Assembly: GCF_018398935.1 (NCBI RefSeq)
Contig: NZ_CP074694.1
Span: forward strand, 4,350,001 to 4,382,000
DNA from: Telmatocola sphagniphila
GTDB taxonomy: Bacteria; Planctomycetota; Planctomycetia; Gemmatales; Gemmataceae
Reading direction: 5' to 3'
DNA length: 32,000 bases
Shown here: piece after piece, positions 20,495-24,756 of the stretch
Layout of the letters: every line of letters starts with the position of its first letter
How positions within the stretch are numbered: position 1 is the first letter of the stretch
Notes under the pieces: generated by a model
Told to the model about the DNA's origin: nothing
Databases searched by the model: none
What the model saw: only the letters and a program-made list of their open reading frames with translations
Program-made: the position numbers and the translations under genes

Positions 20495-20549
20495 GGAAAC
20501 GAAAAAGGCCGTTCAGAATTCCCATCTTCGCGGAATTCTGAACGGCCTT
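20495..20549 (-). terminator. Rho-independent terminator of the Rieske/cytochrome b operon
   Basis: A perfect 17-bp stem pairs AAGGCCGTTCAGAATTC (20505-20521) with GAATTCTGAACGGCCTT (20533-20549). On the minus strand the hairpin is followed by TTTCGTTTCC. It lies 27 nt after the stop at 20576. Confidence 0.85.
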
Positions 20550-20575
20550 AATGATTAATTCGAGGAAATACCGGC

Positions 20576-21967
20576 TTAGTGGGTCGGTGACGGATTACCT
20601 ATGCTGGCCAAGTATTGAGCCAGAGCCTTCCGTTCGGTGGCCGTGCCTACCAAGGGCGGCATGTACTTGCGGTAGGTGGATTCCGCTGCATTTTTATGCA
20701 GCGTTTCCAGTAACGCTTGGATGGCGGTTGCATCTCGACCCGCAATTAGCGAGGCCATCGGTCGGTAGCCATTCACAGTATGGCAACTGGAACATTGGCC
20801 CAGGAACATCAGGTGGCCGATGTCTTTCTGACGCTCGCCGGTTGCAGTGCCGTTCTGCCAGTCGGCCCGTTCTTCCGGTTTCAACCAAGGCGAGTTCTTG
20901 AGGAATCCTTCCGCATTGAACTTCTCGACATCGGATTTGCGAACGCCGTTGGAGTACATGTGGCCGGAAATCACATAAGGCTTGCGCAGCATCTCGCGAG
21001 CGTATTCCGTGGATCCCGTAGCGGCGGCGGCAATGAACATAATCGCCATTGCATGGCCAAAGCTGAAGTCTGTCGGCCGTTGGTAAGCGATGAAGTAAAC
21101 AATCGCGAGCACGGTGGCCGAGGTCATCACGGAAACCAGTGCTGAACGGGTGACCTGAGTGAAGGTGCCCTGCCCGATTGTGGTGATGCCCAGTTCCAAG
21201 AGGCCCTTGCTATCGGCGGGTACGGAGGAGAGGTACCAGAGGAAGAAGATCGGCATCAACAGGAACGAGGGAAACAACCACCCGGCGGACCAGCGCACCA
21301 GACTGGTTTTCAGTTCCGGTTTTTCATCGCTGTCGATCCGGGAAGCGGTCAGCATCCCGAAGATCCCGGCCATTGAGCAGCAAACGGCGATTCGCATGAA
21401 AAGGCTGGGGAAGTAGGTCGGGTTGAAGAAGGCCTGCCAGAAGCGTGAAGCTTCTTTGCCCGTCCCGTTCACTTCCATCCAACTTTCCCCGGGCGTCAGC
21501 ATAAAGGTTAAGATGCCGTTGATGATCACCAGTGTCAGCAGCGAGGTGATCGCATATAACCAACCGACATTTTGATGGGTCCTATCCGGAATGCGATTCC
21601 AGGTGTAATAATAGACGGCCGCCGCAGTCAGTTCGACAATGAAGAAGACCCATTCGATCGCCCAGCCGAACACAAAGTTATGGATGAGCGTGCTGGTCCC
21701 TTCCGGCTGAGCCAGACCGATGGCGAACCAGATCGCCACACCCGTCACCGCCCCATACACCCCGGTGAGCACCAGGAAGAAATAGGAGTGTTTCTTCAGG
21801 TGTTTGAGCCAATCGGTGCGGCCTTCTTTGCGGGCTTTGTATTCGGCCATGGCGAGATACAGGCCACCTCCCACTGCGAAGTGGGAGACCATCACATGAA
21901 ATATAGCGATGGCGCCGATCACCCAAGTGCTGCCGATAAACGGTACATCCCAAAATGGATAATTCAT
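20576..21967 (-). CDS. Polytopic membrane protein: cytochrome bd subunit I (CydA)-like domain fused to a C-terminal monoheme cytochrome c
   Basis: The N-terminal stretches AIFHVMVSHFAVGGG, VLTGVYGAVTGV, GWAIEWVFFIVEL, YTWNRIPDRTHQNVGW and TEYAREMLRKPY run parallel to E. coli CydA as I recall it (YHFLFVP, FALGVATGL, PLAIEGLMAFFLES, GWDRLGKVQH, AEYGRQPW). The C-terminus contains GQCSSCHTVNG (CxxCH). The long periplasmic Q-loop of canonical CydA is absent. Confidence 0.7.
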   Translation of the reverse strand: MNYPFWDVPFIGSTWVIGAIAIFHVMVSHFAVGGGLYLAMAEYKARKEGRTDWLKHLKKHSYFFLVLTGVYGAVTGVAIWFAIGLAQPEGTSTLIHNFVFGWAIEWVFFIVELTAAAVYYYTWNRIPDRTHQNVGWLYAITSLLTLVIINGILTFMLTPGESWMEVNGTGKEASRFWQAFFNPTYFPSLFMRIAVCCSMAGIFGMLTASRIDSDEKPELKTSLVRWSAGWLFPSFLLMPIFFLWYLSSVPADSKGLLELGITTIGQGTFTQVTRSALVSVMTSATVLAIVYFIAYQRPTDFSFGHAMAIMFIAAAATGSTEYAREMLRKPYVISGHMYSNGVRKSDVEKFNAEGFLKNSPWLKPEERADWQNGTATGERQKDIGHLMFLGQCSSCHTVNGYRPMASLIAGRDATAIQALLETLHKNAAESTYRKYMPPLVGTATERKALAQYLASIGNPSPTH

Positions 21968-21990
21968 ATTCTCTTACCTTCCGATCCAGA

Positions 21991-23130: not shown

Positions 23131-23131
23131 G

Positions 23132-23611
23132 TCAACTCCTCGTTACCGTCACGCTACCCGGTTGCACTTTGACCTGGAATCGATCCAGAGGGCGAGGTGG
23201 CGGACCGCTCACATTTTTACCCGAGGCGGGATCGTAGGTGCCGCCATGGCAGGCACAGTAGATGCGTTCTTTTTCCGGTTCATACTGCACGGTGCAGGCG
23301 AGGTGCGTGCACACGGCCGATAAAGCGGTCCACTCCCCATTGGGAAGATGGATCAGCATGGCCGGTTTGTTTCCGAACTTGAAGATCGTAGCCGAGCCTT
23401 TGGGAAGTTCGTCGGCCTTGGGTAGAGTCACTTCGCTGACTGCACCGGCCGCTTCCGCTTTTTCAATTGGCGAGGCCAGGTACTTGTAGACCGGGTAGCC
23501 GATCATGCCGGCATAACCACAACCGACCGCGGCGGTGACAACCTGAATAAAGACGCGCCGGGAGGGACTGCCGGTATCGGTGTCCGGGGCCAGCGGGAGT
23601 TCCGTTTTCAT
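23132..23611 (-). CDS. Rieske [2Fe-2S] protein with Tat-type signal/anchor
   Basis: The cluster-binding boxes are CTHLACTV and CACHGGTYD. The N-terminus contains SRRVFIQVVTAAVG. Confidence 0.9.
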   Translation of the reverse strand: MKTELPLAPDTDTGSPSRRVFIQVVTAAVGCGYAGMIGYPVYKYLASPIEKAEAAGAVSEVTLPKADELPKGSATIFKFGNKPAMLIHLPNGEWTALSAVCTHLACTVQYEPEKERIYCACHGGTYDPASGKNVSGPPPRPLDRFQVKVQPGSVTVTRS

Positions 23612-24756
23612 ACATTCTCCTGCGAAATTTCTTCAGGCTTGCTCTGGAAGGCCACGGTCGACAACCAGGCCAGGACTCCCAATCCGATCACGAACAGGAG
23701 CAGAAACAGACCCAATACTGTCCAGTTCACAAAGACATCACGTTTCCAGACGTCGTAGCCAAAGTGCGAAAGCGAAGTATCCCGAATCAGATCGCGGCTA
23801 ACCACGGCTCCGACGATATTCAGGAATGCCGTAAGCGACACTGCGATAAGGGCCGGCAATCCGCCCAGGTTCTCTTTCGTGATCAACAAACCGGCGAGAG
23901 CAGCAGTACCCACTGCCCCGATTGCCCAGACCGCGGCGGAGATCAACCAGACGGTATCGCCCGAGTTGCAAACGGCTTGCACGTAATCGGGTTGCGAGGC
24001 CCAGACCCAGTAGCCAGTGGCCAGCGAACCGATCGAACCGAATAGAGCCAGAGGAGCTCCCGTTTTGCGAAGGTAATGGCTGGTACCAGAATTCTGGCAG
24101 TGGCTGCGGGAGACCCAGATCATCCAGACGCCGGCGGCGGCAAAGCTTGAGATCAGCACGTAAGCGAAGCGCGGCAGCCAGACGAGTTCTTTCTCAGGCA
24201 TATGGCTACCGAGCGCATCGGCCCGATAGAGATCCCTCCAGAGATCGGGTCGCAGCATCAAGGTCATATTCGTCGAGTAGATCTTGGCGATAAAGATCGC
24301 CAGTACCAGCGAGAAGAAGCCATGGACCCACCACGGCCGACTACTTTCGGCGCGATACTTCATCGTGTAAAGGAACTGATAACAGACGATGAGGATCGGG
24401 ATCACGGCTATCCAGTACGCCCCAATCAGCACGCTGCTGGTATAAAGCGCCCGGCCATAGAGAACCTGAGCGAAGAGTAACGGCGGCACGCCCAGGTTGA
24501 TGACATAGGTCATGATCACCGGCAGCCAGCCCGCGATCTTGCCGGAAGCTTCGGTAATATCGTTACGGTTTGACGATCGCCCATACCAGTTGAAGAAGAT
24601 GGCCGTGAAGAGGCCGCCAATCAACAGGAACAGCGCCAGGAAGTGCAGCGTGAGCGTCAGATCGTGAAGGATTTTGAAAAGCCAAACCGGCGCCGGAATC
24701 GGGATTGGATCTACTGCCGGGAAAAGGAGATCGGTCGATTGGCCAAATAGTATCAT
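23608..24756 (-). CDS. Polytopic membrane protein of unknown function, first gene of the Rieske/cyt b operon
   Basis: The 382-aa protein has about ten hydrophobic spans by eye. Its stop overlaps the Rieske start in an ATGA arrangement. The N-terminus is PAPVWLFKILHDLTLTLHFLALFLLIGG. I recognise no confident family. Confidence 0.7.
   Translation of the reverse strand: MILFGQSTDLLFPAVDPIPIPAPVWLFKILHDLTLTLHFLALFLLIGGLFTAIFFNWYGRSSNRNDITEASGKIAGWLPVIMTYVINLGVPPLLFAQVLYGRALYTSSVLIGAYWIAVIPILIVCYQFLYTMKYRAESSRPWWVHGFFSLVLAIFIAKIYSTNMTLMLRPDLWRDLYRADALGSHMPEKELVWLPRFAYVLISSFAAAGVWMIWVSRSHCQNSGTSHYLRKTGAPLALFGSIGSLATGYWVWASQPDYVQAVCNSGDTVWLISAAVWAIGAVGTAALAGLLITKENLGGLPALIAVSLTAFLNIVGAVVSRDLIRDTSLSHFGYDVWKRDVFVNWTVLGLFLLLFVIGLGVLAWLSTVAFQSKPEEISQENV

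Follow-up and report, generated by a model that had tools for sequence, protein, structure and literature searches.

We analyzed a 32,000-nucleotide (nt) stretch of the genome of the planctomycete Telmatocola sphagniphila (Gemmataceae; NCBI RefSeq assembly GCF_018398935.1, contig NZ_CP074694.1, positions 4,350,001 to 4,382,000; hereafter the window, in whose own numbering positions are given). It harbors a compact cassette of four minus-strand genes built around a Rieske protein and a cytochrome b (Table 1). In the direction of transcription these encode a 382-amino-acid (aa) membrane protein, the Rieske protein, a fused cytochrome b and a 463-aa membrane protein that ends in a c-type heme-binding domain. 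An original prediction, made from the sequence alone, had singled out this cluster as a noncanonical quinol-oxidizing module, and the gene order and boundaries that it gave agree with the open reading frames (ORFs). The junctions it described can likewise be read directly in the sequence. The 382-aa protein and Rieske genes share a 4-nt ATGA overlap at 23608-23611 (GTATGA); a single nucleotide at 23131 separates the Rieske and cytochrome b genes (AGGAG-TTGA-C-ATG), the AGGAG ribosome-binding site lying within the Rieske gene; and a 23-nt gap at 21968-21990, with GGAAGG/AAGAG ahead of the ATG, precedes the 463-aa gene. The terminator proposed to close the cluster is also present, but its stem is of 18 bp and not of 17 bp as first read (span 20505-20549; dG -32.6 kcal/mol, z = -5.54, with 0 of 200 shuffles folding equally well); a simple terminator scan had missed this hairpin because its loop is 9 nt long. 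At the other end, the promoter probably lies within the AT-rich region preceding the 382-aa gene, and a promoter scan found no sigma-70-like site on the minus (coding) strand.

Table 1. Features of the cassette and its surroundings in window coordinates
Feature	Position	Strand	Basis or remarks
382-aa membrane protein gene	23608-24756	minus	ORF list
Rieske gene, 159 aa	23132-23611	minus	ORF list
Fused cytochrome b gene, 379 aa	21991-23130	minus	ORF list
CydA-like gene, 463 aa	20576-21967	minus	ORF list
Predicted CydA-like core with eight transmembrane helices, residues 1-336	20960-21967	minus	Pfam, residue positions, HMMER, AlphaFold2 (AF2)/Foldseek
Predicted class-I monoheme cytochrome c domain, residues 344-463	20579-20938	minus	CSSCH, weak Pfam match, invariant residues
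Intrinsic terminator	20495-20549	minus	perfect 18-bp stem, 9-nt loop, U-run; 26 nt past last stop codon
AT-rich 252-nt intergenic region, presumed operon promoter region	24757-25008	minus	between Ftr gene stop (25009) and 382-aa gene start (24756)
PVC-type heme-binding CxxCH protein, 1133 aa	16975-20376	minus	TIGR02604 N-terminal domain, DUF7133/GSDH-like propeller, HEAT repeats, C-terminal cytochrome c domain (CQRCH)
Formylmethanofuran-tetrahydromethanopterin formyltransferase (FhcD/Ftr)	25009-25896	minus	7.9e-133
MMPL-family RND transporter	25968-28319	minus	upstream neighbor

The two central proteins display the general hallmarks of the bc1/b6f complexes, namely the CTHxxC...CxCH motifs, two histidine pairs and PEWY. 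The Rieske protein starts with a twin-arginine translocation signal-anchor (SRRVF, with RR at residues 18-19) and presents its cluster motifs as C101-T-H103-L-A-C106 (CTHLAC) and C119-A-C121-H122-G-G (CACHGG). It is recovered by the Pfam Rieske model (1.2e-13); its best NCBIfam match is a b6f-type PetC model, under that model's cutoff, and its best PDB match the short b6f-type Rieske domain 8hn2_A (6e-20). The glycine in CACHGG presumably takes the place of the serine by which Rieske clusters of the ubiquinol type attain a higher potential, and would fit a menaquinol-oxidizing enzyme. The cytochrome b combines a b6-like N-terminal half and a subunit-IV-like C-terminal half in one 379-aa polypeptide (Pfam Cytochrome_B 1.6e-44, Cytochrom_B_C 7.6e-9), with the heme ligand pairs H110/H124 and H211/H226, of which the helix D pair has the b6-type 14-residue spacing, and with the Qo motif PEWY at 300-303. 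Its best PDB matches are cytochrome b6 chains (3e-51), and a motif search of the 379-aa protein found no CxxCH. Two features specific to b6f are absent: the cytochrome b is fused rather than split into b6 and subunit IV, and, in a by-eye alignment, it is without the heme-ci cysteine. In that alignment, made against a b6 sequence, we take a tryptophan in the region VPEHKHSLWYYWGGISL to occupy the position of this cysteine.

By sequence and predicted fold, the 463-aa product of the last gene belongs to the OR-C1a subfamily of CydA homologues. Residues 15-206 match positions 4-193 of the 418 in the Pfam profile Cyt_bd_oxida_I (PF01654; 4.7e-20), and H24, E105, E112, H131 and T145 are the equivalents of H19, E99, E107, H126 and S140 of Escherichia coli CydA. 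The OR-C family has been characterized as retaining the four-helix O2-reducing core with no quinol site, in a scaffold of eight helices with a periplasmic heme c extension, and its OR-C1a reference row lists H24, E105, E112, Y119, Y121, H131, S145 and L153 (Murali, Gennis, Hemp 2021, bioRxiv 10.1101/2021.01.16.426971, Supplementary Table 6). At those positions the 463-aa protein has H24, E105, E112, Y119, Y121, H131, T145 and L153. Aligning its family profile to the solved Mycobacterium smegmatis CydA with HMMER pairs the histidine and both glutamates, and 26 homologues from many phyla all retain H24, E105, E112, H131, C392, C395, H396 and M436. The protein is without the quinol-binding Q-loop and the heme b558 ligands (H186, M393), the Pfam match ending at 193/418, and its position 183 is a proline, where the OR-C1a reference row has phenylalanine and the quinol oxidases have histidine. 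Because the Q-loop and the b558 ligands are missing, it would not be expected to oxidize quinol directly. The stretch AREMLRKPYV (321-330) resembles the CydA ExGRQPW motif, and an E445-equivalent ligand may thereby be retained.

The AF2 model of this protein (predicted local distance difference test, pLDDT, 78) shows eight transmembrane helices and a C-terminal helical domain at 344-456; the 19 best matches in a Foldseek search of the PDB are all cytochrome bd subunits, the top 10 being CydA chains. Its C-terminus holds the motif CSSCH at residues 392-396 (nt 20780-20794), which, as had been claimed, is the sole CxxCH in the four proteins, and gives a weak match to Pfam Cytochrome_CBB3 (0.0025, residues 387-453). 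From its conservation, M436 is the probable sixth ligand of this heme c. Counting eight helices from an N-out start, as in CydA, the predicted topology would place the heme c domain in the periplasm. A homologue in Chloracidobacterium thermophilum (P0139) is 65% identical to the 463-aa protein; judging from organism, annotation and context, it would be Cabther_A0912, which figures in the published OR-C1a list with one heme c (bioRxiv 10.1101/2021.01.16.426971). A further histidine, H96 (nt 21680-21682), in the motif LIHNFVF, is invariant nine residues ahead of E105, and its equivalent is also kept in the stand-alone OR-C1a-like proteins described below (the second copy at locus L014, and P0380); the published OR-C residue table gives it no role (bioRxiv 10.1101/2021.01.16.426971).

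The first gene of the cassette proved more elusive at the sequence level. The 382-aa protein has no match in Pfam or NCBIfam, its family profile finds none among PDB sequences, and its more than 2,100 homologues are all unannotated; of the HMM searches that the original prediction had called for on the two flanking proteins, only that with the 463-aa protein was productive. The AF2 model of the 382-aa protein is of high confidence (pLDDT 90.3, predicted template modeling score 0.90) and has nine transmembrane helices. In a Foldseek search of the PDB, CydA and CydB chains account for all of its 13 best matches, the highest TM-score being 0.66. In the family alignment, H38 in the first transmembrane helix is invariant and there is no invariant glutamate at all, so that counterparts of the proton-channel glutamates are lacking; the motifs DPIPLPAPVW and VMTYVINLGxPPLLFAQVLYG are conserved, and no CxxCH was found in the 382-aa protein. 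The published OR-C1b list includes a C. thermophilum 'hypothetical protein' without heme c, whose gene identifier lies three above Cabther_A0912, and its OR-C1a/OR-C1b pairs from Aquificae have adjacent identifiers (bioRxiv 10.1101/2021.01.16.426971). At the C. thermophilum locus we find a 366-aa protein without a Pfam match, followed by Rieske, cytochrome b and CydA-like genes; the two identifiers are three apart because the Rieske and cytochrome b genes stand between those of the oxidase subunits. By its predicted fold and this correspondence, the 382-aa protein is the second, CydB-position subunit of an OR-C oxidase, equivalent to OR-C1b. The original prediction was right that neither flanking membrane protein is a bc-complex subunit; they are not anonymous proteins, being bd-family subunits of the OR-C type and themselves the likely redox partner. 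With nine predicted helices, the 382-aa protein would end on the cytoplasmic side, in agreement with fusions (see below) in which it runs on into the N-in anchor of a Rieske protein. One 382-like protein (P0316) has a C-terminal Tll0287-like domain (3.3e-28), which we take to be a PAS-like heme c-binding domain.

An exhaustive profile search uncovered several gene fusions that connect these components. In P0380, an OR-C1a-like domain with the heme c motif ACVACH is followed by a 382-like domain, while in P0256 and P0264 a 382-like domain is followed by a Rieske protein. Additionally, in a member of the Omnitrophota (locus L014, 11468-13916) the four-gene cassette is directly succeeded by a second, divergent pair without a Rieske/cytochrome b of its own. 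The first gene of this pair encodes a 448-aa CydA-heme c protein (38% identity) and the next, immediately after it, a 385-aa 382-like protein (27% identity), so that the locus carries two generations of the oxidase side by side. Because this second pair and the Aquificae entries adjoin with no Rieske/cytochrome b, OR-C1a and OR-C1b form a pair in their own right. These observations also bear on an alternative role for the 382-aa protein, in which it would help the Rieske/cytochrome b complex to assemble, handle heme for it or act as its scaffold. This would accord with the protein's lack of a detectable sequence family, with its gene being first in the cassette and overlapping the Rieske start codon, and with the 382-like/Rieske fusions. 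We consider such a role highly improbable, given that its high-confidence model matches CydA and CydB chains only, that P0380 joins a 382-like to a CydA-like domain, that 382-like genes are paired with CydA-like genes where Rieske/cytochrome b is absent, and that the published classification places the family in OR-C1b.

Copper-related domains turned up twice in the course of this survey. First, on a single short metagenomic contig, a divergent 382-like protein (P0370; locus L083, 279-2234) is fused via an extra transmembrane/lipobox-like segment to CusF and SCO1/SenC domains, and is preceded by a gene ending in a heme c domain (CAMCH); some OR-C-type enzymes may accordingly involve copper. 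Second, two genes upstream of the C. thermophilum cassette there is a gene of the NosL family of copper chaperones (L081, 1923-2456), which may be a coincidence.

To gauge the conservation of the arrangement, we scanned one genome per species, recovered at least 541 stretches encoding a 382-like protein, and examined the 80 best loci. By tblastn, the order 382-like, Rieske, cytochrome b, CydA-like is found on one strand in 56 of the 80. Another 16 show a Rieske-sized gap, within which a CTHLGC-type...C[A/E]CH motif is present in all 16 cases and a twin-arginine motif in all but one; eight loci are cut by contig ends. The order is kept in every sufficiently long locus across about ten phyla, and because the same genes recur in the same order in so many other genomes the arrangement lies far beyond chance. 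The hosts include Planctomycetota, Verrucomicrobiota, Acidobacteriota, Chlorobi-type phototrophs (Chloroherpetonaceae/Thermochlorobacter), Hydrogenedentota, Armatimonadota, Sumerlaeota, Omnitrophota and others, and those that are named are mostly aerobes or microaerophiles. Identity to the window proteins ranges from 59 to 74% for cytochrome b and from 52 to 69% for the CydA-like subunit. Clustering of all flanking ORFs in the 80 loci revealed no fifth gene common across phyla; because of this, no c1, f or separate cytochrome c can be said to travel with the cassette. The dedicated c1/f gene that accompanies typical bc1 and b6f complexes is therefore lacking here, both in the operon of the window and across the 80 loci, as the original prediction had it for the operon.

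In a neighbor-joining tree of cytochrome b and the CydA-like protein, clades are mostly phylum-coherent with a few exceptions, and we therefore see the cassette as an old module with occasional transfer. Recent lateral transfer, considered on account of a higher identity to the Chlorobi-type proteins than to a Pirellulaceae homologue, was rejected on the strength of the same tree. The cassette in a metagenome-assembled genome (MAG) labeled Nitrospiraceae (L005) is almost identical to that in a Hydrogenedentota MAG (L009), and MAGs labeled 'archaeon', 'Actinomycetota' and 'Gammaproteobacteria' sit inside bacterial clades that belong to other phyla; errors of binning or labeling are a likelier explanation than real hosts.

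The original prediction had been made to depend on the flanking genes being conserved next to Rieske/cytochrome b, and their retention across phyla bears it out. Its notion of a module tied to its own redox partner is further supported by the conserved order together with the 382-like/Rieske and 382-like/CydA-like fusions, which suggest that the four proteins assemble into a stable supercomplex. The same data can be read in terms of two separate, co-expressed complexes, a c1-less Rieske/cytochrome b and an OR-C cytochrome c oxidase, between which electrons pass by collision via the tethered heme c and possibly other cytochromes c. The stand-alone OR-C1a/OR-C1b units without Rieske/cytochrome b (the second pair of L014, P0380 and those of Aquificae) imply that the oxidase can use other donors, and Rieske/cytochrome b complexes of the green sulfur type do exist without c1 (PMC3362086). 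On the other hand, the oxidase genes are split to either side of Rieske/cytochrome b and this interleaving is kept in about ten phyla, which, along with the 382-like/Rieske fusions, is hard to explain without a physical association. We accordingly hold two independent complexes to be unlikely, though deserving of real weight.

Taking these lines together, we consider it moderately probable that the four genes encode a self-contained menaquinol:oxygen oxidoreductase, in which a b6-type Rieske/cytochrome b is combined with a two-subunit, heme-only OR-C oxidase. In such an enzyme, quinol would be oxidized at the Qo site of cytochrome b, with one electron passing to the Rieske cluster. The Rieske head would then deliver this electron to the class-I heme c domain on the C-terminus of the CydA-like subunit, the tethered heme standing in for c1/f as well as for the missing b558/Q-loop entry point. 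From there the electron would reach helices 1-4 and their di-heme active site (H24, E105), where O2, the presumed acceptor, would be reduced with protons drawn from the cytoplasm via an E105/E112 channel. The 382-aa protein would occupy the position of CydB.

Several points weigh against this proposal. That the four genes form one operon is likely, with co-transcription judged from their spacing, and the direct transfer from Rieske to heme c is a postulated step. The confidence of the 463-aa model is only moderate, and the oxygen reductase activity of this protein is putative, resting on its conserved ligands. BLASTP detects nothing significant between the 382-aa and 463-aa proteins, and hhalign comparison of their family profiles gives a probability of 12%, which is not significant; the stretch that it aligns (NMTLMLRP..W with LTFMLTPG..W, and DPT..PR with NPTYWPS) is suggestive and was not used as evidence. 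Because the similarity of the two families is not significant, the CydB-like role of the 382-aa protein rests on predicted fold, fusions and context. Moreover, we know of no OR-C enzyme that has been purified or assayed biochemically. Finally, strict anaerobes such as Desulfovibrio have OR-C relatives with up to eight hemes c (bioRxiv 10.1101/2021.01.16.426971), and acceptors other than O2 are possible.

This last point leads to a further alternative, in which the CydA-like subunit does not reduce O2 and instead detoxifies NO or H2O2, or passes electrons to a periplasmic partner. The lack of an assayed OR-C enzyme and the multiheme extensions of relatives in anaerobes would favor it. In the same vein, the CusF and SCO1 fusion of one relative hints at chemistry foreign to the classical bd oxidases, and non-oxidase roles have been proposed for bd-like proteins of Nitrospina and anammox bacteria (PMC3578206). 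Nevertheless, neither the ligands of the O2-reducing di-heme site nor the proton-channel glutamates vary among the homologues, the cassette occurs mainly in aerobic or microaerophilic lineages, and the PVC-type heme protein downstream of it in the window, a potential periplasmic partner, is not conserved with it. Hence, we regard a function other than oxygen reduction as improbable.

Our preferred reading, the menaquinol:oxygen oxidoreductase, can be taken a step further. The cassette could specify an obligate 'bc-bd' supercomplex of an unrecognized type, with a Q-cycle Rieske/cytochrome b dimer built into a copper-free bd-type oxidase whose own heme c replaces c1/f; we see this as a serious possibility, one that we stop just short of calling probable. 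In textbook stoichiometries, the Q cycle accounts for one charge per electron and bd-type chemistry for another. If the proposed reading is correct, about two charges would be moved per electron, as against one for a quinol-oxidizing bd enzyme. To our knowledge, the complex III-IV supercomplexes described to date all terminate in heme-copper oxidases, and the cytochrome bd oxidases are viewed as quinol oxidases that act alone and yield little energy. A 'bc-bd' enzyme would unite O2 chemistry of the bd type with the proton-motive Q cycle, a combination that may confer high affinity as well as resistance to sulfide and NO, and would constitute a third way of wiring quinol to oxygen. In Acidobacteriota, Verrucomicrobiota, Planctomycetota and aerobic Chlorobi-type phototrophs it could be a branch of terminal oxidases that has escaped notice. 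It would also provide a function for the 382-aa family and for thousands of genes mislabeled 'cytochrome ubiquinol oxidase subunit I', and it would change what is concluded on aerobic capacity and oxygen affinity from the genomes of phyla abundant in soil and water. The prediction is directly testable in the cultured hosts Telmatocola sphagniphila and Chloracidobacterium thermophilum.

Turning to the surroundings of the cassette, the 1133-aa PVC-type protein is encoded directly downstream, past the terminator. It looks like a periplasmic redox protein and could exchange electrons with c-type hemes. We rejected it as a member of the system in light of the strong terminator in between and its not being conserved beside the cassette in the 80 loci. 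The upstream gene for Ftr, a tetrahydromethanopterin-linked C1 enzyme typical of planctomycetes, was rejected likewise, as it is not conserved beside the cassette in these loci; for neither Ftr nor the MMPL transporter was a link to the cassette seen. Several long antisense ORFs of up to 485 aa overlie real genes (18595-20052 and 22432-22938, both on the plus strand, and others), and we take those of the window to be by-products of codon and GC bias, not genes.

Comparison with known systems helps define what sets this cassette apart. A parallel in wiring is offered by the actinobacterial bcc-aa3 supercomplex (QcrCAB and CtaCDEF), which likewise dispenses with a soluble cytochrome c and connects Rieske/cytochrome b to the oxidase by way of a tethered c-type heme. 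However, that system has a heme-copper oxidase, a diheme QcrC subunit and separate operons, whereas here the oxidase would be of the copper-free bd type, with the heme c as part of an oxidase subunit and one CxxCH only. The operon, its immediate flanks and the scanned ORFs of the window gave no heme-copper oxidase domain, in a scan that left out several ORFs of the first 9 kb. The canonical CydAB(X) oxidases of E. coli, Geobacillus and Mycobacterium share the bd-subunit fold predicted for both flanking proteins, and the 463-aa protein keeps their heme and proton-channel residues in helices 1-4. In contrast to CydAB, the entry point for electrons would be the heme c domain, and the second subunit keeps a histidine in its first transmembrane helix that CydB lacks. 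The PetCB of green sulfur bacteria is likewise a two-gene Rieske and fused b6-type cytochrome b unit with no c1/f, but there electrons pass to a separate photosynthetic cytochrome c, and the pair has no bd-like neighbors.

The nearest published idea comes from Nitrospira, in which the CIII_1 Rieske/cytochrome b occurs near bd-superfamily proteins without a quinol site and a III-IV supercomplex was speculated upon; those proteins, however, are of the OR-N type, with 14 transmembrane helices and a putative Cu site, and lie in a loose region with several cytochromes c and NXR parts in place of a compact interleaved operon (PMC6606698). In the open-access literature we found no paper tying OR-C or CydA-like heme c proteins to Rieske/cytochrome b, and an earlier description elsewhere is possible; the paper defining OR-C and its supplements mention neither Rieske nor cytochrome b (bioRxiv 10.1101/2021.01.16.426971). 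The flanking proteins of the cassette match OR-C1, the 463-aa protein having the CydA four-helix core (H24, E105, E112), no quinol site, eight transmembrane helices and a C-terminal heme c, and the 382-aa family corresponding to the heme-c-free 'hypothetical protein' entries of the OR-C1b list. As published, OR-C1a and OR-C1b are encoded by adjacent genes, with a soluble cytochrome c as the likely donor (bioRxiv 10.1101/2021.01.16.426971). Here, by contrast, the order of the subunit genes is reversed, with b first and a last. OR-C1a and OR-C1b were known already as bioinformatic subfamilies, and it is the Rieske/cytochrome b interleaved between their genes that sets the cassette apart from them.

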